Below, piece after piece: positions 25,078 through 53,425 of a stretch of DNA of 64,000 nt. Under the pieces are notes generated by a model. The model was not told the DNA's origin, made no database searches, and saw nothing but the letters and a program-made list of their open reading frames with translations. The stretch lies in assembly GCF_003790525.1 (NCBI RefSeq), contig NZ_CP033635.1; one strand, given 5' to 3'. Each line of letters begins with the position of its first letter. Position 1 is the first letter of the stretch. The DNA comes from Escherichia coli (GTDB taxonomy: Bacteria; Pseudomonadota; Gammaproteobacteria; Enterobacterales; Enterobacteriaceae). The position numbers and the translations under genes were made by a program.

Positions 25078-25839
<762 letters not shown>

Positions 25840-25876
25840 TAACGCTACGCCTGTAAGGCGCACTGGCAGTTCCCTC

Positions 25877-25890
25877 TCCCCTCTGGGGAG
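25877..25890. repeat. left copy of island-flanking direct repeat (att core) tcccctctggggag
   Basis: Identical 14-mer recurs at 52665..52678. Confidence 0.75.
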
Positions 25891-26018
25891 GATCTATTGA
25901 TATCAACTGATTTCAACAGAGCTAACCCCTCCCCCTTTAACCCCCTTTGAAATAAGATATCATCAGAAATTCCTTTTCTCTGGGGGTCAATCATATTCCA
26001 TGAACATCAAGATGATTT

Positions 26019-26040
26019 TGGGGGCTATTCTGGGGGCTAC
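26019..26040 (+). repeat. tandem TGGGGGCTAT / TGGGGGCTAC repeats (candidate integrase arm-type sites), left end
   Basis: Two copies 12 bp apart just upstream of int; a related TGGGGGTCAA at 25981; the same pair recurs at the right end. Confidence 0.55.
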
Positions 26041-26056
26041 ATTTCAGGGGTAACTC

Positions 26057-27250
26057 ATGCCACTTACTGTTCGACAAATTGAGTCGGCTAAACCTGCTGA
26101 CAAGGATTACAAACTTTCTGACGGTCAGGGCCTTTATCTTCTTGTCAAAAAATCCGGTGCCCGTTACTGGAATCTGAAGTACCGGTTTGCCGGTAAGGAA
26201 AAGAAACTGGTGATTGGTGTCTATCCTGACATATCACTGGCTCAGGCTCGTCAGAAGCGGGATGAAGCACGTAAACTTCTGGCTGAAGGTAAAGATCCGT
26301 CGTATGAAAAACAGGCGCGAAAACTTGCCATCAGGGAAAGTATGGCCTGCACATTTCGCACCATTGCAGAGGAGCTGCTTACTCATATGGCACGTCGATG
26401 GACAACAGGTTACCAGGCAGACCAGCGTGCAAGACTTGAAAATCATGTTTTCCCTGCTCTTGGAAACCGTCCTGTGACCGGGATCCGCCCCATGGAAATA
26501 CTGAACGTCCTGAGGACTATAGAAGAACAGGGAAAACTTGAAGCACTGCGTAAAACACGCCAGCTCTGTGCGCAGGTTTTTGATTATGCCATAGCAACAG
26601 GGCGTGCAACCGTTAATCCGGCATCGACACTCAGCGGGGTACTGCTTCCTCCTGAAAAACAACAGCGCAGGACGCTTTCTGAAGAACAGATAGGAGCTTT
26701 CATGTATCAGATAACGGCTTCCGGAAATCTGATGTCGCTGGCAACGCGGATGCTGGTTCTGACCGCTGTTCGCACCGGAGAACTGCGACTGGCAACCTGG
26801 GACGAAATTAATTTCACGGAGGCCCTGTGGGTTATTCCGAAAGAAAGAATGAAAATGCGACGACCGCACGTTGTGCCGCTTTCACGGCAGGTACTGGCGT
26901 TACTGGAGGAGATAAAAACACGCACTGAATCGCGTAATTCCGCCTTTATTATTCCTGGTGCATTCAGAAAAGATCTCCCGCGAAACCGCAAGTGTATCAA
27001 TGAATTCCTTGAGCAGTCAGGCTGGCATGCCCTGACAACAGCCCACGGATTTCGTCATACCTTCAGCACCATTCTCCATGACCATGATTTCAGCTCAGCC
27101 TGGATTGAACTCCAGCTTGCTCATGTTGATAAAAACGTCATGCGTGGCACTTATAACCATGCGCAATATCTGGATGGACGTCGTGAAATGATGCAGTGGT
27201 ACGCTGATTACATTGATTCACTTATGGAGAAAAACGTAAAAACGAAATAA
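26057..27250 (+). CDS. tyrosine site-specific integrase, phage P4 / CP4-57 IntA type
   Basis: 397-aa ORF with P4-integrase-like N-terminus and C-terminal catalytic HGFRHTF ... HxxR ... Y motifs. Confidence 0.9.
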   Translation: MPLTVRQIESAKPADKDYKLSDGQGLYLLVKKSGARYWNLKYRFAGKEKKLVIGVYPDISLAQARQKRDEARKLLAEGKDPSYEKQARKLAIRESMACTFRTIAEELLTHMARRWTTGYQADQRARLENHVFPALGNRPVTGIRPMEILNVLRTIEEQGKLEALRKTRQLCAQVFDYAIATGRATVNPASTLSGVLLPPEKQQRRTLSEEQIGAFMYQITASGNLMSLATRMLVLTAVRTGELRLATWDEINFTEALWVIPKERMKMRRPHVVPLSRQVLALLEEIKTRTESRNSAFIIPGAFRKDLPRNRKCINEFLEQSGWHALTTAHGFRHTFSTILHDHDFSSAWIELQLAHVDKNVMRGTYNHAQYLDGRREMMQWYADYIDSLMEKNVKTK

Positions 27251-27258
27251 GCCATCAC

Positions 27259-27308
27259 CCCCACCAACCACAGCGGTTGGTGGGGAGTTAACTACCATTT
27301 GTATTTTT
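27259..27308 (+). terminator. possible terminator after int
   Basis: 11-bp stem ccccaccaacc/ggttggtgggg with 5-nt loop; the T-run lies about 18 nt downstream, so it is non-canonical. Confidence 0.4.
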
Positions 27309-27616
27309 TGATTTCTGCCTTCAGGCGACATACTCAATATCATCTGATGAGCGAAGATACCCCACCCAAAATGATGGTAGCTTCACATCGTCATTTTCAT
27401 ATAGCAGCACACTGCTGTTCTGACCTCGTAGTCACATTTCTACAGCATCATTACCAGTCAGGCTGATTGCTCCTCATTGAAAGAATGAATCCATGACTAA
27501 CACAAAAATAGCTCTGGCCGGCTGTTACCGGTGTGAGAAGAAACTTGATACAAACTGCCGTGGGCTTTATTCTTGGAGAACTATAAGTTTTTCCAGATTT
27601 ACAACAGATTCAGCAT

Positions 27617-28672
27617 ATGAACAGATTACGCTTTGAAGTGAAGAATAATCAGGGCTGCTTCATTTTCCCGGAAACCTGGTATGAATCACTACTGGAGAAG
27701 TTTAACGAACTGCTTGACTCCTTTGACGAGGATGAGATCAGCGACAGGTCTTATATCAATGCCCTGAAGCGTATCACACAACAGGAACCGGATTTTATTG
27801 ATGCGTATGCATACATGGCATATGCCTTTCTGGAGCAGGAGACACCGCGAAAAGCGCTGAATATTGCACTCAAAGGACTGGCGGCAGGTAACCGACTGAT
27901 ACCTGAAGGTTTCACCGGTGAAATCAGCTGGTTACATCCGGAAAACAGGCCCTTTCTGAATGCCCTTTACGCCGCCATCCTCGCGAATGTGCACCTGCAG
28001 CATCATCAGAATGCTGTCATGCTCATTGATAAAATTCTGGCTTACAATCCTTCAGATAATCCGGGAGCACGCTGGTTACTGGGACCGGAACTGTTGCGTT
28101 CTGGTGACCATGAACGGGCTCTCTGTGTTCTCCGGCAGTATGCAGATGAATTTTCGCCTTACTGGTATGAGCTTGGTCTTCTGCATTTTATTAATGGAGA
28201 GCCGGTGAAGGCAGCGACAGCTTTCCGGCGCGGCTTTGCAGAAAATACTTATATCGCGGAGATTCTATGCGGAAATCTGTACCCCTTCCCGCTTGCCCTT
28301 TGGCATGATTATTCATCTGAGCCGGATACAGCCAGACAGTATTATGAAACATTCTGCCCGTTATGGGGAAAATATCCCGAGGCATTGTTATTTGTTAACT
28401 GGCTCTACAACCAGTCTGGCGTACTGAGCGAACGGGCTGAATTCATGAAGTGTGCTGAAATGCTGTTAAGGGCAGATGATCAGGAAATGAATGAAAGCAT
28501 TTTTCAGCAGCGGGAGCTCTTACGGGAAAGAATTGATGATCGTCTTTCTGAGGAAATCGTTCAGAAATTACGGACATTGAACGGGGAGGAGATCTGGCCC
28601 TGGATGTTACCGTTTTCCGGAGAACTGATCCCCGCAGACATTTGCTTTCAGAACAGTCTGAAATATCAGTAA
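27617..28672 (+). CDS. hypothetical protein, TPR-like helical repeats by eye
   Basis: 351-aa ORF; repeated A/L/Y-rich helical segments; no family recognised. Confidence 0.6.
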   Translation: MNRLRFEVKNNQGCFIFPETWYESLLEKFNELLDSFDEDEISDRSYINALKRITQQEPDFIDAYAYMAYAFLEQETPRKALNIALKGLAAGNRLIPEGFTGEISWLHPENRPFLNALYAAILANVHLQHHQNAVMLIDKILAYNPSDNPGARWLLGPELLRSGDHERALCVLRQYADEFSPYWYELGLLHFINGEPVKAATAFRRGFAENTYIAEILCGNLYPFPLALWHDYSSEPDTARQYYETFCPLWGKYPEALLFVNWLYNQSGVLSERAEFMKCAEMLLRADDQEMNESIFQQRELLRERIDDRLSEEIVQKLRTLNGEEIWPWMLPFSGELIPADICFQNSLKYQ

Positions 28673-28773
28673 TATCTGCACCAGGATGCCATTCCGGGGT
28701 CAGTAAGGATCTTCCCCCTGACCTGGACAAATGTAATGAAACTCAGCTAAGCCCCAGAAGAGCAGGCATATAG

Positions 28774-29154
28774 TCAACCGAGGTCGCTGCAATAAACCAT
28801 CGCGCTTTGATTCCCCCGATGAAGAGGTGACTGGCAGCGACTTCCTGAGCGACGACTTGTCTTTCCATCAATAGCGACTACCTGAGAAGATAAAACAGGA
28901 AGGACTTCTGAACCCCATCGCCGGAACGCAGCTTCAAACTGCTCAGGGACAATCAGCCCAAAAAGACGGGCGAATGTATCATGGGAAGGTATGCCATTTT
29001 TTAGAGGTAAAAAACTGGCGGAGCCACTCAATGCGTTGCCTGCCCAGAGCTCAATTTCCTGAAAATTATCCGCACCGACCAGCACACCACAAACGGCAAT
29101 GGTCAATGTATCAACCAGAGTGTGCCTGACTTGTCCAGGGCTGACAGGGATCAT
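28774..29154 (-). pseudogene. ISAs1-family (H-repeat type) transposase N-terminal fragment
   Basis: DTLTIAVCGVLVGADNFQEIELWAGN...GIPSHDTFARLF...VAIDGKT resembles the N-terminus of ISAs1/YhhI-type transposases; only ~126 codons, C-terminal DDE region absent. Confidence 0.6.
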
Positions 29155-29299
29155 GTATTGAGATGAATATATCGGTAACCGGCGGTATATGAGACATAAT
29201 ATATCCCTTTGATAAAAAAGGTTATGTTGACATATTTATCCTGCATGTCACGTATCATTATTTTTCATGCGATTGCCCTGCGGTTACCACCGCTCACAG

Positions 29300-29404
29300 T
29301 TAGTAAAGGACTGGGCGGAAGTGGTCAATATAAGGTTGCATTACCTTCCTCCTTATAGTCCGAATCTGAATCCGATTGAACGGATGTGGAAAAATGCTGC
29401 TTAA
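29300..29404 (+). pseudogene. IS630-family transposase C-terminal remnant
   Basis: Reading frame ending ...YLPPYSPNLNPIERMWKNAA* matches the conserved DDE-proximal YSP(D/E)LNPIE motif of IS630/Tc1 transposases; no upstream ORF. Confidence 0.55.
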
Positions 29405-29716
29405 TAGTATTGATGTTCATCTTTATGCCTCTAAAAGAAAGCATAAGATCACAACAGGCTCAGCAGGTCAATCACTCTATTTTTGTTCAAAAAACGTTCA
29501 TGATCTTGCCCTACCCAATTTTGTGGGTAAGGATATGCGATGAAATTCTCCTTGCAGTTTAATACAACCTTTCCATATTAAGCGGCAGTATTACCTGCCA
29601 GTCAGGATAATTTTACACCTAATGTTAGTTAAAATTTGTGCAACTTGAAACAATAATACTACAGTATCCACTATCGTCAGCACACCTCAAATACTATTTT
29701 TTATGAAACGTTTATT

Positions 29717-30373
29717 TTATAAATCATTATCAATCAAACTCAGGAATGTATCTCTGGCATAATTACCAACGATGTTGGTTGTTATCGCATCAAGACTACC
29801 ACCAACGATTCCTCCTACAACAGGAACAAACTTTGACATATTAATAACACCAGTAGCACCTGTTTTTGTAAGCAGTCTGAAACCGACTGCCTTATTTATC
29901 TTTACAATAATATCTTTACTAATACATCTAATTGCATTTGTTGTCAACTTTTGTCCTATCTGAATTCCTGCTTCCTTCAAAATATCTTTCGCAGCATTAC
30001 CTACAAGACAGGTATAAACAATAGTTCTGACTTTATCATCACGAATATCCTGGCCACACATGATCGCAATAGATGCAACCATCCTGACCTGAATGAAAAG
30101 GACACTTGAAATATTGGTCGGTATAGTTACTGGTAATGTAATAATTCCTCCAAGACCAGTAAGAAAACCTGATGTGGCTGACTTGGTATTTTGCCATCGA
30201 ATAAGGCTATTTATCTGTTCTTTTAAACTACTACCCGTTTTCAGATAACTTTCCGCAAGACTATGTGCCGTATCAATTCCTGGGATACCAATACCATCGA
30301 TGGATTTTTCATAAGCGTAATCCAGAAATTTTATGATTTTTGATGGCGTGAGAATATTTTCATTATCAGTCAT
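29717..30373 (-). CDS. hypothetical protein, possibly EcsC-family; glycine-rich hydrophobic segments
   Basis: ORF trimmed to first internal ATG (MTDNENIL); motifs TSGFLTGLGGIITLPVTIP and VPVVGGIVGG; AT-rich by eye; family assignment from memory only. Confidence 0.55.
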   Translation of the reverse strand: MTDNENILTPSKIIKFLDYAYEKSIDGIGIPGIDTAHSLAESYLKTGSSLKEQINSLIRWQNTKSATSGFLTGLGGIITLPVTIPTNISSVLFIQVRMVASIAIMCGQDIRDDKVRTIVYTCLVGNAAKDILKEAGIQIGQKLTTNAIRCISKDIIVKINKAVGFRLLTKTGATGVINMSKFVPVVGGIVGGSLDAITTNIVGNYARDTFLSLIDNDL

Positions 30374-30464
30374 ACAACAAAACACCTAAAAATTTCACGA
30401 TCACTTTCTAAAAACTATCTCCGACAGATATCGGAACACCAGTATTATCACCAATTAAATAATA

Positions 30465-30656
30465 TTATTTTTTGAGAAACAATTGTATTGCTCTGGCAAA
30501 AAGATTTTCTGTAATTGTAGCCTTACGTTTATAAATAACTTTCTCTCCACACACAGGACATTCATAAAATCCTGCTGTACAATTCATATGAATAATAGTT
30601 TTACTCCATTGACAATTTGTACAGATAAATGTAATGGGTGGACAGGGAAAAATCAT
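30465..30656 (-). CDS. small zinc-ribbon protein (two Cys pairs)
   Basis: ORF trimmed to internal ATG (MIFPCPPITFICTNCQ...ECPVCGEK); CxxC-type pairs; sits between the 117-aa and EcsC-like genes on the same strand. Confidence 0.45.
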   Translation of the reverse strand: MIFPCPPITFICTNCQWSKTIIHMNCTAGFYECPVCGEKVIYKRKATITENLFARAIQLFLKK

Positions 30657-30746
30657 TGGCTCACACTCTCGATATATAAATAACACTTACAGGGACATGT
30701 AAATATTTTCGATTTATCCCTATAAAAATAACTTCACCTCCAGTAA

Positions 30747-31100
30747 TCAATTCAGTTCTGTAAGACGATCGATTATTTTACGTAGTTCATCTGCAGAATC
30801 ACATGTATCCAGTGAAATTTTTATTCTAAAATTCTTTAACCAATTAGCAGCCTCCTGATCTTCACGCCATAAACGCTCCCCGCTCCAATCCCCCCTAAAA
30901 CATAGAGCAGCAATAGCCAATCCTCTGCATGCTGGCCGATTATGCTCAGATGTATTATTTTGGTTATAAAAATCGTTAATTCTTTCTACCGGAGATGATT
31001 TTATTTTATCCCACACATTGAAATTAGCTTTTTTCATCGTTTCAGCAGCAGCATTAGAAGCAAGCTTACCGAATCCCATTATAGCATCCCAAAATCCCAT
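30747..31100 (-). CDS. hypothetical protein (117 aa)
   Basis: ATG start with AAGGTG RBS; no recognisable family; AT-rich. Confidence 0.5.
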   Translation of the reverse strand: MGFWDAIMGFGKLASNAAAETMKKANFNVWDKIKSSPVERINDFYNQNNTSEHNRPACRGLAIAALCFRGDWSGERLWREDQEAANWLKNFRIKISLDTCDSADELRKIIDRLTELN

Positions 31101-31312
31101 ATATCACCTTATGCTATATAATATCTAAATGAGTATCTAATCTTTTAGAACCACTATTTGGACAATGGTTTTACGCCACTTACATCTGGTACAAATGAAT
31201 GTAACCGGGGGCTGAGGAAGTGCCATGAAGGTACGTGTCTGTTGTATTAAACTATCAAATCAGACCACACGCTGCGATTTTGAATTTAACAACGTGTAGT
31301 CAGATATTACAT

Positions 31313-32062
31313 TCAGAAGCTGTATGTAGCACCTAACGTAAATTCGTTACTTCTGACATCAACAGAGGATTTATATGTATCCTGCCCGTCTTCATACGTC
31401 AGGGTTGAATCACCTGCATCAAGATAGCGATAAGCAAGGTCAAGACTGAAATCCGGGGTGACCTCATATTTCACGCCAACACCAAGGCTCCATGCGAAAT
31501 TGTTATCATATCCCGAGTAATGTAATGAAGAAGCATCACTTACTTCACCTGATTTATTCCAGGAGGTATCGGTGTATGTTGCCTTATGATGTACCCGCGC
31601 ATAACCCAGTCCGGCTGATACCCACGGAGTGAAAGCACTGCTGTTTCTGAAATCATAATACGTGTTCACCATCAGGGTATTCACGCTGAGCCTGTTTTGT
31701 GTGTCTTCCTTCCAACCATTATCTCCAGACGGGGACTCCCATGTATCCAGTGGATAGCGGGAATTCGCAGAGCCGCGACCATAGAATTCAACTTCCGTGC
31801 GTACAGGGACATTGTAGTGCTGATAAAAGTCGTATCCCACCGCAAGGCCAGCACCAAAAACCGTATCGCTCTTGTCACCGCCTTTATACTTATAAACATC
31901 ATCCCCAAAGTCCTGACTAAAGCGCTGATTATCCTGAGTGATAACAGATGCACCAGCCTTACCCGTGATATAGAAACCGGTTTTATCCGCATCTGCCAGC
32001 GTCAGCGTTGAAAACGTACCGGTAAGCGCAGCTACCGCAGTGAGTGCCAGTAACTTTTTCAC
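31313..32062 (-). CDS. outer-membrane beta-barrel protein, OmpA/opacity-like; possibly Hra/Tia/Hek adhesin-invasin family
   Basis: Signal peptide MKKLLALTAVAALTGTFSTLTLA, alternating amphipathic strands, C-terminal ...GATYSF with terminal aromatic; GTG start; ~249 aa as for Tia/Hek-type proteins. Confidence 0.6.
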   Translation of the reverse strand: MKKLLALTAVAALTGTFSTLTLADADKTGFYITGKAGASVITQDNQRFSQDFGDDVYKYKGGDKSDTVFGAGLAVGYDFYQHYNVPVRTEVEFYGRGSANSRYPLDTWESPSGDNGWKEDTQNRLSVNTLMVNTYYDFRNSSAFTPWVSAGLGYARVHHKATYTDTSWNKSGEVSDASSLHYSGYDNNFAWSLGVGVKYEVTPDFSLDLAYRYLDAGDSTLTYEDGQDTYKSSVDVRSNEFTLGATYSF

Positions 32063-32377
32063 AATCCACCTCTCCTGATGTTTCCTTCAGACATATGAAT
32101 TTGTCCAATTTTAAGACGGATTTCTCATTGGTAAAATGAATTGTACAGATCGTATCGATCGACAAAGTCGATCGTTAAGCAGAAAAAAGATTTATCGTCA
32201 GCGAAGATTTGTTTATGGAAATGACTGAAAAAACGGGTTAAAAAACAGACTGTTCTGTCCATGTGAAACGGGAAGTGACGGGATAAGACGTTATGTGAGG
32301 ATTGTTACGGGAAATGCTGTTTTACGTTGTTAAAATGTAACTCCGCAATGAAACTATCCCCTGTGGAGGTCCTGTAA

Positions 32378-32731
32378 ATGAACAAAGCACTCTCTTCCAT
32401 TCTGCTCATCTTCGGTATCTGTGCATCATCACTGGCCGCTGAAAAAAACAGAACCGTCAGTTTTCCACGATGTGAAGTACAGGAAGCATCAGCTGTTGCA
32501 GCCAGCGTCAAACGGGACTATCTCCAGAAACAGGTATTTCAGTGGAAAGATGATCAGGAAATTCTCGGTCAGCAGCGTCCCGTTGTCTGGGTGAATCTTC
32601 GTGAGCCGGTAAATAAAGGTGATAATGTCATCACAGTGCATCTCACTGCCCGTGGAAAGAAAGCAGATATTCAGTATCGTGTGCGCGTTGACTGTAAGAA
32701 CGGAAGTGCTACCTGGCAACGCCAGGGATGA
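32378..32731 (+). CDS. small secreted hypothetical protein
   Basis: 117-aa ORF with N-terminal signal peptide (ILLIFGICASSLAA). Confidence 0.45.
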   Translation: MNKALSSILLIFGICASSLAAEKNRTVSFPRCEVQEASAVAASVKRDYLQKQVFQWKDDQEILGQQRPVVWVNLREPVNKGDNVITVHLTARGKKADIQYRVRVDCKNGSATWQRQG

Positions 32732-32777
32732 ACGGGTGAAGTTGAATACAGAGCCCGAACGAACGGGCTCTCCATAC

Positions 32778-33350
32778 TCATCGTATATAACTGAATGCGG
32801 TGATGACGTGTTTCACCCCCGCCACGCGACTGGCGATATCAGCAGCAGCCTGTCCTTCCTTCTCTGTAACTCTCCCCATAAGAAAGACTTCACCATTCTC
32901 CGTCAGTACCTTTACATCTGACAGTTTCACCCTGCTGCTCTTCAGTAACTGTGCCCGGATTTTTGTGGTCAGCCACGCATCAGTAGCTGTTTTATCAGCC
33001 CGAAGTGGTTTTCCCGTCCTTATTTCATTCCATACCTGCACAGTCCCCTCAACACCATCTGCAATCTGACGGGCTTTTTCACCTGCACTACGGTCTGGTG
33101 CCTGCCCTGTCAGCAGTACAGTGCCCTGGTATGCTGTGACGATGATTCGCGCATCCCCCCTGAGTTGTGAGTCCTTCGACAGCGCACGGCTGACCCTTGC
33201 TTCCAGAATTTCATCATCAATCTGCGTTCCCGCACTTCGGGGGTCCACTGACACTTTAGTACCCACAGCAGCCGTACCGACCAGCGCAGCGGCAACACAA
33301 CCCTGTAACAGCAACAGAGTCGAAAGAAAAGGCAGAAACCAGCGTTGCAT
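32778..33350 (-). CDS. BON-domain lipoprotein, DolP (YraP) paralog
   Basis: Trimmed to MQRWFLPFLSTLLLLQGC lipobox start with GGAGG RBS; sequence closely parallels DolP/YraP (two BON domains, ...ASRVAGVKHVITAFSYIR). Confidence 0.75.
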   Translation of the reverse strand: MQRWFLPFLSTLLLLQGCVAAALVGTAAVGTKVSVDPRSAGTQIDDEILEARVSRALSKDSQLRGDARIIVTAYQGTVLLTGQAPDRSAGEKARQIADGVEGTVQVWNEIRTGKPLRADKTATDAWLTTKIRAQLLKSSRVKLSDVKVLTENGEVFLMGRVTEKEGQAAADIASRVAGVKHVITAFSYIR

Positions 33351-33673
33351 GGCAGAATCCTCCACGGTCTGATATCCGGAATTTCGCAGTATGACGGCAG
33401 GAATCAGCCATCACAGATACCACAAGCTTCAGAGAGTAACGAAAACGTTAAAGGAAACGGAAGTGCCTGAATGTAAAGAACGGGGAACCACACAGGGTAT
33501 GGACAAACATAATAACAATAACAGGATGAAAATATTGAATAAAAAATAAAAACCGAGACATCATCATTTGCAGTAATAGCCACCTCCTTACCGAAAAGTG
33601 TGAGTTGCCGGACATTTTTTAAACGCATGATAAGGTCTGATGATACAGTCACCCTGCAACCAGGAGGTACATC

Positions 33674-33967
33674 ATGCGTATACGTGTTTTTGGTTACCGG
33701 CACTGCCCTTCAGTCCATCGCATCATGCATCACGCAACGCGAATCCCCGATGAAATGGAACCGGATGTTGTGTTTATTGATGTCGCGAAGCACAGTGTGA
33801 CGCTGCGGGATATGGCTGACCGTGCAGGCTGCCCGGTGGATAACTTCCCGTGTGTGTTTGTTGATGATGTCTATCTGGAGCCCCTCCACCAGAACCGGGC
33901 AAACCGCACTTTACATACTGCTGAATATTTATTACCGGATATGGACAATCGCTTTCATTCGGGATAA
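33674..33967 (+). CDS. hypothetical protein, possibly thioredoxin-fold / glutaredoxin-like
   Basis: 97-aa ORF with strong AGGAGG RBS; MRIRVFGYRHCPSV... layout resembles a glutaredoxin-type N-terminus with single Cys; weak. Confidence 0.4.
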   Translation: MRIRVFGYRHCPSVHRIMHHATRIPDEMEPDVVFIDVAKHSVTLRDMADRAGCPVDNFPCVFVDDVYLEPLHQNRANRTLHTAEYLLPDMDNRFHSG

Positions 33968-34091
33968 AAAATACTGCGCGTTCCTGGTTTATTTTGCGTT
34001 GCTGTCATGACGTGTTTGCCTTCATTGCCGGGATCGCGCACTTTTTGTTATAACTCCCCGGAGGACACTGTCTGTAATCAGATGGAAACCT

Positions 34092-34526
34092 TTATCTCAG
34101 TGATGTCCTGGTTAATACAGAATACTGCCCCGGACCAAGTAACATAATGGCAATCCCCCCCATGAAATACAGCATTTCATTTTCAAGCCCCCACGCCCCT
34201 ACTTCAGTCAGTGTGAAAAACTTCCCTGTTCCGACCAGAAGCGTGGCAACAATCAGTGTCAGCGCATAAATCAGAGCAGCAGGTCTGGTAAATATCCCAA
34301 GAATGATAAGTACCGGAGCCACGATTTCACCAATATACACACCATAGGCAATAAATCCTGGCAAACCAGCATCCTGCAACATTGATATAATCCAGTTGAC
34401 ACCGTGCTCTATTTTGGCCACACCATGGAACAGCATCAATATACCAAATGTCAGTCTCAGCAACAGAAGACCTGTATCCGGGTAGTCTGTCAGTCTGGTA
34501 AAGAACATATTTATTCTTGCTGGCAT
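34092..34526 (-). CDS. DoxX-family inner membrane protein
   Basis: 144-aa ORF, 4 hydrophobic helices, DoxX-like pattern. Confidence 0.65.
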   Translation of the reverse strand: MPARINMFFTRLTDYPDTGLLLLRLTFGILMLFHGVAKIEHGVNWIISMLQDAGLPGFIAYGVYIGEIVAPVLIILGIFTRPAALIYALTLIVATLLVGTGKFFTLTEVGAWGLENEMLYFMGGIAIMLLGPGQYSVLTRTSLR

Positions 34527-35126
34527 AAAAAACCTCGTTAAACGATAACAGATAATGAAGAAACTATTATCGTTGAGTCGACACCATCAATTGACCAGAT
34601 ATTTCTGACATTCATAATCAAAAAATTTGACAAAACTGTAAACGTTCGCTTTTTATACCAACACAGAATCCACTCAGTCACACAACCTGTATGCGTCATT
34701 TCCTGCTGTTATTTAAAAAATTTCTCACGTAACAGACATTTCAAAAAAACACTAAAAAATACCAGAACAATTAAGATAATATTACGATCAAATAAGTAAA
34801 AGTCTTTTGTCTGTTATTTTTATTTTCTGTGATTACTGTCATTCTTTCACCACTTTAATTAACATCGCATAATAATCCGGGAGGTGGATAAGATATGAAA
34901 ATTAACTATCCTTTACTGGCGCTGGCGTTGAATTATTACCTGTAGAGCTCACTCCGGATGAGCAGAAAGAACCGATGGTGGCTCTTACTCCACTTTTATC
35001 CACTCCTTCACACAGCACTGTCAGTGCAGGTGCCTGAAAGATCTCGTTCCGTCACGGTAAAATGACGCTGGAAAATTCTTCACCAGAACTGCTCACTGTG
35101 TTAATTCGTGAACTGACCTGGGGGGA

Positions 35127-35285
35127 ATGCGTGGTACCCTGCTGTACGGACTAATCGGAACCTGTCGGTTGAACGGTATCGATCCGGAAGCGTATCTGCG
35201 CCATATCCTGAACGTTCTACCGGAATGGCCTTCCTGCATGGTTGATGAACTCCTGCCATGGAATATGGTGCTCCCATTGGGGTAA
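35127..35285 (+). pseudogene. IS66-family transposase C-terminal remnant
   Basis: MRGTLLYGLIGTCRLNGIDPEAYLRHILNVLPEWPSCMVDELLPWN matches the conserved C-terminal tail of IS66-family TnpC; upstream frames are disrupted. Confidence 0.6.
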
Positions 35286-35411
35286 GCGTCAATACGGCGT
35301 TCGCTTAACTTAACACTTACTTTCAAAGCCTGATATCTGTCCTACGCTTTTCCTCAATACCACATCGCCAGCAGGAAACAACCTAATGCCTGTGTTGGGG
35401 TCTGAATTACT

Positions 35412-35430
35412 AATGATAATCATTTGCATT
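35412..35430. promoter_or_regulatory. Fur box upstream of the sitA-like gene
   Basis: AATGATAATCATTTGCATT, close to the Fur consensus GATAATGATAATCATTATC. Confidence 0.65.
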
Positions 35431-35433
35431 GTG

Positions 35434-35471
35434 TATAGCTTATGCTATAAAACATAGCCGTTGCTATGTTT
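35434..35471. promoter_or_regulatory. tandem MntR operators upstream of the sitA-like gene
   Basis: AAACATAGC-cgtt-GCTATGTTT, a perfect match to the MntR box architecture, preceded by TATAGC-ttat-GCTATA. Confidence 0.7.
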
Positions 35472-35503
35472 GTTCTAATTTTACTCACTATAGGTACTGA
35501 ATT

Positions 35504-36418
35504 ATGCACTCAATAAAAAAAGTAACCATGCTCCTGGGGTGCCTCGCCCTCACCTGCTCGATAGCATTTCAGGCGAGTGCAACTGAAAAATTCAAGGTCA
35601 TTACAACATTTACCATCATCGCAGATATGGCCAAAAACGTGGCTGGAGATGCTGCAGAAGTCTCATCCATAACCAGGCCCGGTGCAGAAATTCATGAGTA
35701 TCAGCCTACCCCTGGCGATATTAAACGTGCGCAGGGGGCACAACTGATTCTCGCCAACGGTATGAATCTGGAATTGTGGTTCCAGCGCTTTTACCAGCAT
35801 CTCAGTGGGGTTCCAGAAGTGATTGTCTCTTCGGGTGTGACGCCAGTAGGGATCACCGAAGGCCCCTACGAGGGAAAACCTAACCCTCATGCCTGGATGT
35901 CGCCAGATAATGCTTTGATTTACGTCGATAATATTCGTGATGCGTTGATAAAATACGATCCGGCAAATGCAAAAACATACCAACGTAATGCCGATACTTA
36001 TAAAGCCAAGATTACCCAAACCCTTGCCCCCCTGCGTAAGCAGATTGCTGAACTCCCTGAGAATAAAAGATGGATGGTCACCAGTGAAGGGGCTTTTTCT
36101 TATCTCGCACGCGATTTGGGGCTAAAAGAGCTTTATCTGTGGCCGATAAATGCCGATCAACAAGGAACACCCCAGCAGGTACGTAAAGTGGTTGATATAG
36201 TGAAGAAAAATAATATCCCAGCGGTATTTAGTGAGAGTACGGTTTCCGATAAACCAGCGCGTCAGGTTGCGCGTGAAACCGGCGCACACTACGGCGGTGT
36301 GCTCTATGTCGATTCCCTGAGCACAGAAAACGGCCCGGTACCTACGTATATCGACCTTCTGAAGGTTACTACCAGTACGCTGGTGCAGGGAATTAAAGCC
36401 GGGAAAAGGGAGAAGTAA
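35504..36418 (+). CDS. sitA: metal (Mn/Fe) ABC transporter periplasmic binding protein, SitA/YfeA/MntC (TroA) family
   Basis: 304-aa ORF with signal peptide and TroA-like metal-binding fold; Fur and MntR boxes upstream as in sitABCD/yfeABCD operons. Confidence 0.75.
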   Translation: MHSIKKVTMLLGCLALTCSIAFQASATEKFKVITTFTIIADMAKNVAGDAAEVSSITRPGAEIHEYQPTPGDIKRAQGAQLILANGMNLELWFQRFYQHLSGVPEVIVSSGVTPVGITEGPYEGKPNPHAWMSPDNALIYVDNIRDALIKYDPANAKTYQRNADTYKAKITQTLAPLRKQIAELPENKRWMVTSEGAFSYLARDLGLKELYLWPINADQQGTPQQVRKVVDIVKKNNIPAVFSESTVSDKPARQVARETGAHYGGVLYVDSLSTENGPVPTYIDLLKVTTSTLVQGIKAGKREK

Positions 36419-36552
36419 TGATGCAATCTGCGGGTATTGTCGTTAATGGCGTTACTGTCACCTGGCGAAACGGGCAGAAAGCACTGCGCGATGCATCCTT
36501 CACAGTACCAGGCGGATCTATTGCCGCTCTGCTTGGGGTAAACGGTTCCGGT
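36418..36552 (+). pseudogene. truncated metal ABC transporter ATPase (sitB-like), first ~45 codons only
   Basis: ATGA overlap with sitA stop; N-terminus typical of an ABC ATPase (VTVTWRNGQKALRDASFTVPGGSIAALLGVNGSG) breaks inside Walker A (GSGE in place of GSGKST); downstream sequence is unrelated. Confidence 0.7.
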
Positions 36553-36900
36553 GAAATCGTCTTGACACGTTTCTGGGCTCGTCATCAGCGGTTGTTGCGA
36601 ATGATCGCCGCCCTGCGATGGTTGATTTATTTTATTGCGCCCCGGCGTCTGCCTTGCCAGGTACCGGAGGCGGGCTCTGAAGGACTGAGTAGGGTGAGCG
36701 CGTCAGGCCGCGAAGTACTGACACGGGAGTTTGTGGCAGGCAGTGAAGTCCTGACCAGGGTAAGGGAGGCGCTGACGTGCAGGTCCTGACTGTCAGCCAG
36801 GCGCATGGTGACTGACTTTCTCAATAACCCGCTGTCAGGCGCTCAACGCCCGACAGCAGGCCATGGCCCGGTGTGCAAAGACCTGACGGCAGGTGTTGTG

Positions 36901-37221
36901 TCACCCGGAGAAGGTAAATCCCTCAAGAGGCAGCAGCTCAGCCAGTCGGTCCTCAGGCCACTCCGGCAGGCGCGTCAGTACGTCCGTCAGCCAGGCATGT
37001 GGCTCCAGACCATTACGCTTTGCTGTTTCCAGAAGACTCATTATCTGTGCCGCGCGTTTGCCGGCCATCAGCGAGCCTGCGAATAACCATGCCTTTCGCC
37101 CCAGCGTGACCGGGCGGATGGCTCGTTCGCAGATATTGTTGTCCGGTGGCACAGAGCCATCATCCAGAAAACGGCACAGCTCATCAGGTCGTTTCAGGAT
37201 ATAGCTGATAGCCTTATGCAA
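36901..37221 (-). pseudogene. IS66-family transposase C-terminal fragment
   Basis: NNICERAIRPVTLGRKAWLFAGS...LLETAKRNGLEPHAWLTDVLTRLPEWP matches the conserved IS66 TnpC C-terminal region; N-terminal two-thirds missing. Confidence 0.65.
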
Positions 37222-37694
37222 TGGACTGTCTGGCGGACCGCCTGCTCCTGCTCTTGACGGTTTTTTGCCTTGTATATCAGGTTATAGACGAGAAGATTGT
37301 CGTCTTCGTGGTTTCCGTCAGGAAAAGAGAATGCTCAAAAGTGTATAGTAAGGCGGTCAAACGCATTCGCTGAAATAAGATGTGTCACTTCAGCTTTGCG
37401 TTAACACGACTATTTTTCATCACTCAAGCGGTAGTCCCGGTGACTCACACGTATACGAGTCACCGCTTCAGATTTGAGTATCCGAATTTAAATCAGGGAC
37501 ACAATGGAAGAAGCGAACACTTTCGCATCCTCTTCCTGCAATTCGCAGACTGTCACTCTGCGTCCAGTTCCCTCTTTCCTCAGCAGGTACCAACGCCAGG
37601 CTCCCGACAAAGGTTGACCTGAAACGACCAAATACACAGGAAACAAAATACTGTCAGACAGAACGAGGCGTGCTATACATCACGCCTCAATGCT

Positions 37695-38684
37695 TCAGTG
37701 GCTGATTTTTTTCAGCTGTTCTTCACTCAATCCCGTGATTTTCATGATGGTCTGAAGCCCCATTCCTTCAGCCAACATATTACGCGCCGTTTCCAGTTTG
37801 CCTTCCAGTTGTCCTTCGAGTCGCCCTTCGGCACGGCCTTCCATTCTGCCTTCCATTCTGCCTTCTAGCTTACCGCGCTCCATACCCTGGGCAATACCGC
37901 GCTCAAATCCCTTGACTTCCCCTTCCTGCTTCAGTTGTTCAGCCAGTGTCATTATGTTGCCCTCATGCTGTGGCAGCCGCTCCGCCAGCGTCTGCAAAAA
38001 CCTTACCGTCACATGTTCACTGCCGTTCAGCAGATAGTGGAACAGAGCCTTCGCCAGCTCTTCATTCAGTGAAGTCTGTATCAGCTGAACCAGCCTGTCC
38101 ATCTGCAGCATGATGTCGCGGCTGCGGCTGTGTTTCATCAGCAGCGTCAGTGCCCCCATTCGGCGGTGTTGCATTATCTCATCGTCATCCAGTACCGTCA
38201 CGTCCACCAGGTGGAACGGTCTGGTGTAGATTTTAGCAGCAAGTTCCGGATTTCTGAAACACTCCAGCCAGTTCATGCTGTACGGGTACGGGCTCCGCTC
38301 ACCGTGGTAGAATAACAGCGGGATCACCAGCGGCAGCTCATGGTGCTGTTCAAAGTGACGCTGCATCGCCGCCACCGCATATCTGAGCATCCTGAACGCC
38401 ATAAACGCGTTTTCCGTACTCTGGTGTTCCGCGAGGCAATAAATATACCCCTCCTCACCGCTGACGGTCTTCATGCTGAACAGCGCATCGCACGCATACT
38501 GTTTCAGATCCTGGTCCACAAAGGTACAGGGCTCCAGCCGCAGCGTCGACAGATCACACAACTGCCGGTATTCCGCCGGAAGATGCAGTTCAACAAAATC
38601 ACGGGCCACCTCTGCTGAGGCCATAAACGCCCTGAAGGCGGCATCATGCGGCGTGGGCGTATTTTTCTCTTTCCTGCTGCTCAC
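37695..38684 (-). CDS. Rpn-family (YhgA-like) recombination-promoting nuclease / PD-(D/E)XK putative transposase
   Basis: 329-aa ORF with characteristic Rpn N-terminus (HDAAFRAFMASAEVARDFVELHLP) and C-terminal EGR(M/A/L) tetrapeptide repeats. Confidence 0.7.
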   Translation of the reverse strand: MSSRKEKNTPTPHDAAFRAFMASAEVARDFVELHLPAEYRQLCDLSTLRLEPCTFVDQDLKQYACDALFSMKTVSGEEGYIYCLAEHQSTENAFMAFRMLRYAVAAMQRHFEQHHELPLVIPLLFYHGERSPYPYSMNWLECFRNPELAAKIYTRPFHLVDVTVLDDDEIMQHRRMGALTLLMKHSRSRDIMLQMDRLVQLIQTSLNEELAKALFHYLLNGSEHVTVRFLQTLAERLPQHEGNIMTLAEQLKQEGEVKGFERGIAQGMERGKLEGRMEGRMEGRAEGRLEGQLEGKLETARNMLAEGMGLQTIMKITGLSEEQLKKISH

Positions 38685-38918
38685 TGTTTATCTCTTCTGA
38701 ACCAGGTAACATTAACAGAACATGTTTCAGGATATCCGCGCAGTGCGGAACATTACGGCTCACCACTGTGACGGCGGATCATCGCCACCCAGTATCCGAC
38801 AGACCCCTTACTTTGTTCGTAAACATCCTTCCTGCCCCCCTGAATCTCCAGACAACCAATATCACTTAAATAAGTGATAGTCTTAATACTAGTTTTTAGA
38901 CTAGTCATTGGAGAACAG

Positions 38919-39284
38919 ATGATTGATGTCTTAGGGCCGGAGAAACGCAGACGGCGTACCACACAGGAAAAGATCGCAATTGTTCAGCAGAGTTTTGAAC
39001 CGGGAATGACGGTCTCCCTTGTAGCCCGGCAACACGGTGTGGCAGCCAGCCAGCTATTTCTCTGGCGCAAGCAATACCAGGAGGGAAGTCTTACTGCTGT
39101 GGCCGCAGGAGAACAGGTCGTTCCTGCCTCTGAACTTGCTGCTGCCATGAAGCAGATTAAAGAACTCCAGCGCCTGCTCGGCAAAAAAACGATGGAAAAT
39201 GAACTCCTCAAAGAAGCCGTTGAATATGGACGGGCAAAAAAGTGGATAGCGCACGCGCCCTTATTGCCCGGGGATGGGGAGTAA
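38919..39284 (+). CDS. insC: IS2 transposase OrfA (InsC)
   Basis: [56 protein letters not shown]...; ORF-track ORF trimmed to Met 16. Confidence 0.9.
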
Positions 39285-40147
39285 GCTTAGTCAGCCGTTG
39301 TCTCCGGGTGTCGCGTGCGCAGTTGCACGTCATTCTCAGACGAACCGATGACTGGATGGATGGCCGCCGCAGTCGTCACACTGATGATACGGATGTGCTT
39401 CTCCGTATACACCATGTTATCGGAGAGCTGCCCACGTATGGTTATCGTCGGGTATGGGCGCTGCTTCGCAGACAGGCAGAACTTGATGGTATGCCTGCGA
39501 TCAATGCCAAACGTGTTTACCGGATCATGCGCCAGAATGCGCTGTTGCTTGAGCGAAAACCTGCTGTACCGCCATCGAAACGGGCACATACAGGCAGAGT
39601 GGCTGTGAAAGAAAGTAATCAGCGATGGTGCTCTGACGGGTTCGAGTTCCGCTGTGATAACGGAGAAAAACTGCGAGTCACGTTCGCGCTGGACTGCTGT
39701 GACCGTGAGGCACTGCACTGGGCGGTCACTACGGGCGGCTTCAACAGTGAAACAGTACAGGACGTCATGCCAGGAGCGGTGGAACGCCGCTTCGGCAACG
39801 ATCTTCCGGCGTCTCCAGTAGAGTGGCTGACGGATAATGGTTCATGCTACCGGGCTAATGAAACACGGCAGTTTGCCCGGATGTTGGGGCTTGAACCGAA
39901 GAGCACGGCGGTGCGGAGTCCGGAGAGTAACGGCATAGCAGAGAGCTTCGTGAAAACGATAAAGCGTGACTACATCAGTATCATGCCTAAACCAGACGGG
40001 TTAACGGCAGCAAAGAACCTTGCAGAGGCGTTCGAGCATTATAACGAATGGCATCCGCATAGTGCACTGGGTTATCGCTCGCCACGGGAATATCTGCGGC
40101 AGCAGGCCAGTAATGGGTTAAGTGATAACAGGTGTCTGGAAATATAG
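39242..40147 (+). CDS. insD: IS2 transposase OrfB (InsD), DDE catalytic subunit
   Basis: 301-aa ORF overlapping insC in the -1 frame, as in IS3-family frameshift arrangement. Confidence 0.9.
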
Positions 40148-40291
40148 GGGCAAATCCACCTGAATCTGAGGCAGCACCTGGCACGGCTGGGACGGAAGTC
40201 GCTGTCGTTTTCAAAATCGGTGGAGCTGCATGACAAAGTCATCAGGCATTATCTGAACATAAAACACTATCAATAAGTTGGAGTCATTACC

Positions 40292-40441
40292 GTGTTCCCG
40301 ACAGACGACTCGGTGAAAAAAGTGGTGTGGCTGGCAATCCAGTCTGCGTCCCAGAAATGGACGATGCCGTTGAAGGACTGGCGAATGGCAATGAGCCGCT
40401 TTATTATCGAGTTCGGTGACCGCCTGGACGGTCACTTCTGA
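40292..40441 (+). pseudogene. IS256-family (mutator-type) transposase C-terminal remnant
   Basis: VFPTDDSVKKVVWLAIQSASQKWTMPLKDWRMAMSRFIIEFGDRLDGHF* matches the conserved C-terminal tail of IS256-family transposases; immediately right of IS2. Confidence 0.6.
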
Positions 40442-40473
40442 GAAAAGGCATTTACACAGAATCCTAAACAGGC

Positions 40474-41211
40474 TCATGTACAGCGCTGTACCGGGCAATG
40501 GGTAATACCGGTCACAACCGGTAACCCCAGAGACAATGCAACTGTTTTTAACGCAATATACTGGCCGGATGTATCACCCCGGGCAGCCTGAAAACACCTT
40601 TCCACCCGGCATTGTCCGTCAGCACTTATCACCCGCCATGTCTGTTGCAATAAATCCACCCGTTGCGAACATTCTTCATCAACCGTGGCACTGACCCGTG
40701 GATGGCAAATGCTCGTCTGGCTGAGCAGCAACAGGCATCGCATTGTTGCTCCTCCATGTTGTTCCCGCAACCAGCGTAATACCACCGGTGGTGCTGGACT
40801 GGCCGTGTGATTACGTTCAGTAATACGCTCGTGCACCTGTCGGTAAAAGGAAGTACAGAATGCATGAATCTGTTGTCCGTTGATGTTTCCTTCTGCCGAA
40901 TGGAGTGTGAAGTGGACGGCCAGCAGACGCGGCCAGTGATCCACCGCCTGCTGAATAAAACGCCGGATTTCCACCGGCTCTGAAAGTACGGTTTCGGTTA
41001 TTTGCACGATTTGATCCCCTTGAATGTTGCTGAACCGGTGTCGGTACGCAGGAAAGCACGCCGAGACCGGTACGATGCCTGTTACAGCGAAGAACGAGGA
41101 ATGACAGACGGGGGCAGCAGGTCGCCAGCACCAGGGACAGGGCTGATTTCCACAATACCAACGCTGGTATTTTGCACATTGCCAGCGTACCGGCATTACA
41201 ACACGTTTCAT
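40474..41211 (-). CDS. hypothetical protein, weakly YagK/YfjJ-like (third paralog)
   Basis: 259-aa ORF trimmed to Met 15; central segment RLLAVHFTLHSAEG... resembles the RVDLRFP-type region of the two adjacent YagK/YfjJ-like proteins; competing frames exist. Confidence 0.4.
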   Translation of the reverse strand: MKRVVMPVRWQCAKYQRWYCGNQPCPWCWRPAAPVCHSSFFAVTGIVPVSACFPAYRHRFSNIQGDQIVQITETVLSEPVEIRRFIQQAVDHWPRLLAVHFTLHSAEGNINGQQIHAFCTSFYRQVHERITERNHTASPAPPVVLRWLREQHGGATMRCLLLLSQTSICHPRVSATVDEECSQRVDLLQQTWRVISADGQCRVERCFQAARGDTSGQYIALKTVALSLGLPVVTGITHCPVQRCT

Positions 41212-52664: not shown

Positions 52665-52678
52665 TCCCCTCTGGGGAG
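52665..52678. repeat. right copy of island-flanking direct repeat (att core) tcccctctggggag
   Basis: Identical to 25877..25890. Confidence 0.75.
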
Positions 52679-52765: not shown

Positions 52766-53425
52766 ATGCAGTTTGACTGGAGTGCCATCTGGCCAGCCAT
52801 TCCGCTTCTGATTGAAGGTGCCAAAATGACCCTGTGGATCTCGGTCCTCGGTCTGGCTGGCGGCCTGGTGATCGGATTGCTGGCAGGTTTTGCACGCACC
52901 TTCGGTGGTTGGATAGCCAACCACGTCGCGCTGGTCTTTATTGAAGTGATCCGCGGCACACCTATCGTCGTCCAGGTGATGTTTATCTATTTCGCCCTGC
53001 CGATGGCGTTTAACGACTTACGCATCGACCCGTTTACTGCGGCGGTGGTCACCATCATGATCAACTCTGGCGCGTACATTGCGGAAATCACGCGTGGTGC
53101 GGTGCTGTCTATTCACAAAGGTTTTCGTGAAGCAGGACTGGCGCTCGGTCTTTCACGTTGGGAAACCATTCGCTACGTCATTTTACCGCTGGCACTGCGT
53201 CGTATGCTGCCGCCGCTGGGTAACCAGTGGATCATCAGCATTAAAGACACCTCGCTGTTTATTGTTATCGGTGTGGCGGAACTGACCCGTCAGGGGCAAG
53301 AAATTATTGCCGGTAACTTCCGCGCCCTTGAGATCTGGAGCGCCGTGGCGGTGTTCTATCTGATTATTACCCTGGTGCTGAGCTTTATTCTGCGTCGTCT
53401 GGAAAGAAGGATGAAAATCCTGTGA
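52766..53425 (+). CDS. glnP: glutamine ABC transporter permease GlnP
   Basis: 219-aa ORF. Confidence 0.95.

Follow-up and report, generated by a model that had tools for sequence, protein, structure and literature searches.

SitABCD-type metal ABC importers of E. coli are represented here by three loci, i.e., two chromosomal copies next to uspF (L014, L016) and one plasmid copy next to IS1 (L015). Two types of IS66-family elements are also needed for comparison: (i) the IS682/ISEc23 group (L008 4602-6215, L007 5644-7257 and L013 5006-6619; both names are those given by RefSeq to these copies); (ii) an unnamed 2773-bp element of E. coli strain Z1323CEC0009 (L010 1945-4717 and L011 1945-4717). 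The 64,000-nucleotide stretch of Escherichia coli contig NZ_CP033635.1 that was analysed (the window) contains a sit locus close to the former operons, bracketed by one remnant of each IS66 type and carried by an island that lies between glnH and glnP. This bracket is, with good probability, made of two unrelated IS66 scars left by separate events, i.e., it reflects ordinary decay of the island and not an operon-capturing transposon. The features of the locus are listed below (window coordinates, strand, description and evidence).

34896..34928, plus: 5' stub of a ydhP-like MFS transporter gene, 11 codons, MKINYPLLALA (blastn match to annotated ydhP, 82.7%; alignment with the ydhP start in locus L017)
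34915..35118, plus: part of an IS682-like tnpA, residues 70-137 of 141, interrupted by an in-frame stop (84% aa, 85.6% nt; tblastn, blastn)
34917..34928, no strand: left joint of the upstream remnant, 12 nt, CTGGCGCTGGCG (base-by-base comparison with L008 tnpA and L017 ydhP)
35112..35285, plus: tnpC remnant, residues 481-537 of 537 and stop codon (PF13817, DDE_Tnp_IS66_C, E=3.1e-15; tblastn, 84-85% aa to IS682/ISEc23 TnpC)
35284..35322, plus: right terminal region of the upstream IS, ending ...TTAACTTAACACTTAC at 35322 (alignment with the right ends of ISEc23 in L013 and of IS682 in L007 and L008)
35323..35503, plus: retained sit upstream region (alignment with three other sit loci)
35411-35424, plus: Fur-box-like core TAATGATAATCATT (conserved in the three other sit loci, alignment)
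35450-35471, plus: perfect palindrome AAACATAGC-N4-GCTATGTTT, MntR-box-like (conserved in the three other sit loci, alignment)
35504..36418, plus: sitA, intact, 304-aa Mn/Fe-binding periplasmic protein (Pfam ZnuA, E=4.6e-86; annotated as sitA in RefSeq relatives)
36418..36552, plus: sitB codons 1-45 of 275 (NCBIfam NF011630, E=4e-20, profile positions 1-45; alignment with the intact sitB of L002)
36545..36551, no strand: putative deletion joint, 7 nt, GTTCCGG (window compared with L002, L006, L019, L020, L021 and L010 repeats)
36545..36900, minus: 3' non-coding region and right inverted repeat, minus 5 nt, of the downstream IS (98.9-99.6% to AR_0085 and 96.4% to five other genomes, all from 36545)
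36901..37255, minus: tnpC remnant, residues 417-527 of 527 at 36904-37236 (PF03050, DDE_Tnp_IS66, E=4.3e-20; PF13817, DDE_Tnp_IS66_C, E=8e-18; tblastn, 86% aa)
37266..37373, plus: RelE/StbE toxin gene stub (RefSeq annotation of the matching sequence in L001, 99.9% over 34600-37900, and of L006)
37695..38684, minus: Rpn-family nuclease gene, with which the conserved distal backbone of the island begins (NCBIfam TIGR01784, E=1.7e-51; RpnA, E=1.9e-90)

The first-pass annotation had recognised two ORFs (35127-35285, plus strand; 36901-37221, minus strand) as C-terminal remnants of IS66-family transposases, with their 3' ends directed toward sitA and probably derived from different members of the family. 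All this is borne out. The Pfam E-values range from 3e-15 to 4e-20 and both 3' ends point toward sitA, so that sitA and the cut sitB are bracketed. The two fragments share only 41% aa identity over their common C-terminus, and their terminal repeats differ (...CACTTAC for the upstream element, GTCATGTTCCGG... for the downstream one). The identity and the extent of both remnants are read directly from the alignments, and the IS-derived DNA is wider than the two ORFs: 34917-35322 upstream and 36545-37255 downstream. The same pseudogenes are already labelled in the RefSeq annotation of near-identical genomes (LH50-c, 99.9% over 34600-37900). In the literature, a search for sit and IS66 together turned up only general plasmid and island papers. 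An Rfam scan of 33000-41000 gave no match.

As compared with the SitABCD operons of E. coli, the window is 94.6% identical in nucleotides over 35321-36559, and the palindrome and the Fur-like core are conserved. It differs from them in three respects: (i) the ATPase gene is cut at codon 45; (ii) both permease genes are absent, sitC and sitD being missing from the locus; (iii) an IS66 end takes the place of the DNA upstream of 35323. The sitB stub ends inside the Walker A motif (GVNGSG), and its ORF reads on into 78 IS-derived codons up to a stop at 36789. Thus, with an intact SitA, a SitB that ends at residue 45 of 275 and no permeases, the locus does not encode a SitABCD-type metal ABC importer: the transporter is dead.

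The palindrome AAACATAGC-N4-GCTATGTTT is unique in the window, where none is expected by chance. The palindrome and the core at 35411-35424 look like what we take to be MntR and Fur operators, as in sit/mntH regulation. No match to the 19-nt Fur consensus was found upstream of sitA at 3 mismatches or fewer. sitA is an orphan gene, probably with its metal-regulated promoter still in place. The three other sit loci stay similar to one another further upstream than 35323; the upstream IS end thus cut into an older sit upstream region. The only sitBCD genes of LH50-c and TUM9803 are those of the generic operon, which lies at another locus. For at least these two carriers, a second sit operon thus makes the sit copy of the window type redundant.

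The upstream remnant has the same ...CGGCGTTCGCTTAACACTTAC terminus as the IS682/ISEc23 group. Of the ~2500 bp of these elements it keeps ~400 bp, and the left end, tnpB and the catalytic part of TnpC are lacking. Its tnpA contains an in-frame stop and its terminal repeat a 5-nt duplication (TTAAC), apart from which the right end is intact. A TnpC homologue is therefore present, though reduced to its C-terminal 57 residues; on the contrary, a complete tnpA-tnpB-tnpC set with both inverted repeats is not, because tnpA (residues 70-137) is fused to tnpC (residues 481-537). In this fusion tnpB and tnpC codons 1-480 are deleted and the internal joint lies near 35126-35128. The assignment of 35041-35130 to a TnpB fragment, which is also the RefSeq annotation of L002, was rejected, since tblastn gives TnpA residues 70-137. 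The tnpC side is 91.8% identical in nucleotides to the ISEc23-family copy of AR_0085 (L013 6463-6651). The tnpA part is nearer to IS682 and the tnpC part nearer to ISEc23, so the remnant may derive from a distinct IS66 member.

On its left side the remnant cuts off the ydhP-like gene, the ATG of which is at 34896. The dodecamer CTGGCGCTGGCG is common to this gene and to the IS682-like tnpA, and no left inverted repeat is found at the joint; the shared dodecamer marks 34917-34928 as a short-homology deletion joint. On its right side the IS end at 35322 directly abuts the sit upstream DNA, ~180 bp before the start of sitA.

The segment 34850-35503 was found (coverage of at least 80%) in 17 of 5426 complete E. 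coli genomes. Nine of these carry the sitB joint described below, and the eight others an intact island-type sitABCD (99.7-100% identity over sitB'-sitC-sitD). This is the comparison with intact sit operons that had been advised together with the first-pass annotation, and it separates the two sides of the bracket: the upstream remnant, which occurs beside an intact operon in 8 of the 17 genomes, is older than the truncation and did not contribute to it. A common origin of the bracket is thus contradicted.

The downstream remnant belongs to another type. It has the same type of terminal repeat, GTAAT(G/A)TTCCGG..., as the 2773-bp element of Z1323CEC0009. It differs from that element as a distinct sublineage, of which the window keeps only the last 711 bp, minus the terminal 5 nt. 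Over 36545..36900 the identity to the full-length 2773-bp elements is ~78%, and the nucleotide homology stops at 37255 (blastn limits). A TnpC homologue is present here too: it covers the last 60 positions of DDE_Tnp_IS66, and its match to NCBIfam NF033517 (E=2.4e-35) is below the full-length cutoff, only profile positions 298-387 being present. The left end is absent and the terminal repeat is not intact, since the GTCAT seen in six other copies is missing.

The full-length relatives (~78% nt) were found in one strain, in a prophage terminase gene and on a plasmid between traX and traI. The two copies compared measure 2773 bp and end with GTAATGTTCCGG... and GTAATATTCCGG... (in longer form GTAATGTTCCGGGGAACTCAT and GTAATATTCCGGCGAACTCAT). 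At these two independent insertions 8-bp target duplications are found (GTTATATC and TCATCAGC). The full-length relatives have a long region (about 360 nt) after the tnpC stop, as does the remnant; the 340 bp that separate the tnpC stop from sitB in the window thus belong to the normal 3' region of this IS type. Neither the E. coli nor the plasmid collection yielded a full-length copy of the downstream sublineage at more than 80% identity, and in the plasmid collection nothing exceeded ~79% with full coverage. At the inner break the remnant adjoins the RelE/StbE stub, a 35-aa sequence that has no Pfam match.

The closest copy of the downstream remnant is that of AR_0085, which is 99.6% identical and breaks off at the same inner point, next to the RelE stub and then Rpn. 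The downstream element was therefore defective by the time of its fusion with sitB. The AR_0085 copy differs at its other side, where the terminus is complete. The complete terminus GTCATGTTCCGG is found in six genomes (AR_0085 and five others), beside an unrelated ABC-ATPase stub. In these six genomes the IS end reads GTCATGTTCCGGTGAAATCG and abuts the last 33 codons of this ABC-ATPase gene, after which come MFS, lldP and lldD genes. A third context of the same IS end is found in strain 23CRST013 (ATAATGTTCTGG, longer reading ATAATGTTCTGGTGAAATCG). These other copies agree with the full-length repeats, i.e., they have five more terminal bases than the window.

The joint itself can be read base by base. 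The window is identical to the intact sitB of L002 through 36551, except for one substitution at 36532, while its identity to the closest IS end (AR_0085, 99.6% over 36563-37260) begins at 36545. The heptamer GTTCCGG at 36545..36551 is thus common to intact sitB and to the right inverted repeat of the IS; once a 1-nt gap is allowed, 13 of 15 positions agree between the two parents (GTTCCGG-AAATCG). The terminal 5 nt of the IS (GTCAT) are missing. A joint placed 5 nt short of the IS terminus, on a microhomology of 7 nt, points to a deletion by illegitimate recombination and not to a transposase product, and the same may be said of CTGGCGCTGGCG at 34917-34928, which provides a second example of such a joint. 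The ATPase stub of AR_0085 was considered as a paralogue of sitB, which would permit homologous recombination; this was rejected since its C-terminus is unrelated to that of SitB. The sitB joint is found in nine complete genomes, with 98.3-100% identity.

A direct transposition of an intact downstream IS into sitB, followed by local trimming of 5 nt and by separate deletions of the rest, is the best of the other explanations, though an unlikely one. This IS type does insert into genes with 8-bp duplications, and the joint alone does not distinguish a short deletion from a long one. However, the AR_0085 copy, 99.6% identical to the remnant and broken at the same inner point, ends with a complete terminus inside another gene, and the AR_0085-type junction is conserved in five more genomes. 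Without tnpA, tnpB, the left end and the greater part of tnpC, such a remnant cannot transpose alone. Direct transposition would therefore require either that the identical truncation occurred twice or that the remnant was mobilised in trans. It must be added that the overlap of 7 nt is short and that transposition into sitB with a small local deletion would give the same joint, which counts against the deletion by illegitimate recombination.

The latter remains the preferred reading, and the island context indicates what would have been deleted. No island-type sitBCD was found in any of the nine joint carriers, which argues that the distal part of the sit operon was lost and not moved. An inversion instead of a deletion was rejected on the same ground, there being no reciprocal product. 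AR_0085 is the only genome in which both partners are unfused, at 98% identity or more to the window copies, and their orientation fits a deletion. In this genome, however, 179 kb separate the two partners and include essential core genes (lptF, lptG and valS among others), so that a chromosome of the AR_0085 type, reduced by one simple deletion, was rejected as the direct precursor.

A more plausible arrangement is provided by strain 23CRST013, which carries at the same glnH|glnP site an island with two matching backbones and different cargo. Its integrase-proximal backbone (int, TPR, EcsC, OMP, yebF) is 99.8% identical to window 25714-32813, and its distal backbone (RelE, Rpn, HTH, Gp2, GTPase onward) is 91-93% identical to the window. 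They enclose ~19 kb of unrelated genes for sugar and ketone-body metabolism. Since 23CRST013 carries both backbones at glnH|glnP, the sit side and the Rpn side of the window are opposite ends of one island type, in which the cargo varies. It is most likely that a deletion of cargo within a single island removed the remainder of sitB, sitC and sitD; that this was one deletion step is inferred from the above comparisons. No genome of the collection contains the postulated precursor, in which sitABCD, cargo, the ATPase stub and the IS remnant would follow one another in one contiguous island. A loss of glnH-dps-rhtA-ompX to the right of the island was also considered and rejected, as dps and glnH lie to its left.

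The succession of events may then be described as follows, their order being given directly by the distribution across genomes. Long ago, an IS682/ISEc23-like IS66 element would have been placed with its right end ~180 bp upstream of sitA, the sit promoter region being left intact. This element would then have lost its left end by a deletion at the 12-nt microhomology with the ydhP-like gene, as well as tnpB and most of tnpC by an internal deletion, so that ~400 bp of dead sequence remain. Elsewhere in the island cargo, a different IS66 element of the ~2.77-kb type would have inserted into another ABC-ATPase gene and would later have been cut to its last 0.7 kb, next to the RelE stub and the Rpn gene. 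Later still, a RecA-independent (illegitimate) recombination would have joined GTTCCGG in the Walker A sequence of sitB to the heptamer in the right inverted repeat, deleting the rest of sitB, sitC and sitD together with all the cargo between. No transposition is possible from either remnant.

Both known partners of the downstream IS end are ABC-ATPase genes. Moreover, the coding sequence of the sitB Walker A motif (GTAAACGGTTCCGGAAAATCG) resembles the terminal repeat (GTCATGTTCCGGTGAAATCG), with 7 contiguous identical bases. P-loop coding sequences might thus act as pseudo-ends or as preferred recombination partners for this IS type, in which case ABC transporter operons would be its recurrent casualties; such a preference is improbable. 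Separately, an equally doubtful suggestion concerns the orphan SitA, which could work with the SitBCD of the second operon as a candidate role.

The first-pass annotation had further proposed that the bracket is the footprint of an IS-mediated capture or erosion of a metal-uptake operon. Erosion is correct for the downstream side, where sitB stops after codon 45 and both sitC and sitD have been lost. The capture part has to be given up. A composite transposon, in which the sit operon was formerly enclosed by two IS66 copies and carried by them into the island, could be suspected, as sit operons often adjoin IS elements (e.g., the IS1 beside sit on the plasmid) and as the upstream IS end meets the sit upstream region without a gap. 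Nevertheless, the remnants belong to different IS66 lineages with unrelated terminal repeats, and one transposase would not act on both. The inner sides of the bracket are two right ends that face sitA, so that sitA lies outside both IS bodies, while the outer ends and most of each element are gone. The locus thus lacks a pair of copies of one IS whose outer ends could still be used. Moreover, the downstream remnant is absent from the eight genomes with an intact island-type sitABCD; it interrupts sitB instead of flanking the operon, and the truncating joint is not at the IS terminus. The missing outer ends, the two different IS types and their differing genome distributions together exclude a composite transposon for practical purposes, and a capture of this kind is very improbable. 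An artefact of assembly (a chimera), for which no point was found, is weaker still and can be dismissed, since the sitB/IS joint is present in nine independently sequenced complete genomes at 98.3-100% identity. The two sides of the bracket have no mechanistic link and their apparent pairing is a coincidence.

The main value of these results is a correct annotation and a caution, with little importance beyond. The recorded hosts of the nine joint carriers are chicken or poultry for seven of them; the name of an eighth strain contains "kylling", and the ninth record gives no host. sitA is a virulence-associated metal-uptake gene that often serves as an ExPEC/APEC marker, but in this set of genomes, most of them poultry-associated, its presence by itself does not mean a working SitABCD. 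Finally, in five of the nine joint carriers (e.g., strain 135) a further IS66-family element is inserted in the downstream remnant, at 37042/37043.

The regions compared are window 35321-36559 and 9960-12360 of L002, a relative with an intact island-type sitABCD. The island-type sitA and the generic chromosomal one (from the operon at the other locus) differ by about 5%, i.e., 94.6% identity, but between island-type sitB'-sitC-sitD and the generic copies the difference is only about 1% (98.8-99.1% identity). This unequal divergence suggests past recombination inside the sit operon.

The truncated sitB frame (36418-36789, plus strand) overlaps the stop codon of sitA in an ATGA-type coupling and runs on through 78 IS-derived codons. 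Thus a 123-aa chimeric SitB/IS peptide could be translated from it.

The downstream remnant (36545-37255), i.e., the IS66-family tail joined to truncated sitB, carries a further insertion in five of the nine complete E. coli genomes that share this joint. The additional element is a complete IS66-family one with tnpA, tnpB and a frameshifted tnpC, and the DNA past it is unlike the window in these five carriers. In strain 135 it is placed as follows:

L003 10443-~13000, additional IS66-family element, corresponding to window 37042/37043

The island (~25891-52664, 26.8 kb) lies between glnH (25093-25839) and glnP (52766-53425) and splits the glnHPQ operon. No tRNA gene is found within the window. 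The following features belong to the island and its borders:

25877-25890 and 52665-52678, 14-nt direct repeat TCCCCTCTGGGGAG at the island borders
26057-27250, integrase gene, on the glnH side
~38853-40190, IS3-family element, inserted immediately beyond the Rpn gene

In AR_0085 (2770000-2999000; L012, L013, L018), two halves of this island type are located about 180 kb apart: (i) the integrase-proximal half, with intact sitABCD, adjoins ulaD; (ii) the distal half (Rpn...DUF4942) adjoins cadC. The interval includes core genes whose order is inverted with reference to K-12. This suggests that the chromosome underwent a large inversion between copies of the island.

23CRST013, where the island also occupies glnH|glnP, has a lone piece of about 90 nt (L021 27674-27764) from the right end of the same IS type as the downstream remnant. 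It has 89.5% identity to window 36545-36630, is inverted with respect to the window, and lies within the cargo of the island, close to a gene for a PapB/FocB regulator.

The Rpn-family protein (37695-38684, minus strand) contains a run of EGR(M/L)EGR-type repeats at its C-terminal end, which give weak matches to FliH models. The annotated product of the carrier LH50-c is shorter. The IS3-family element, presumably IS2-like, has two ORFs (38874-39284 and 39242-40147) with HTH_Tnp_1 plus rve domains and, contrary to the window, is absent from the matching position in LH50-c.
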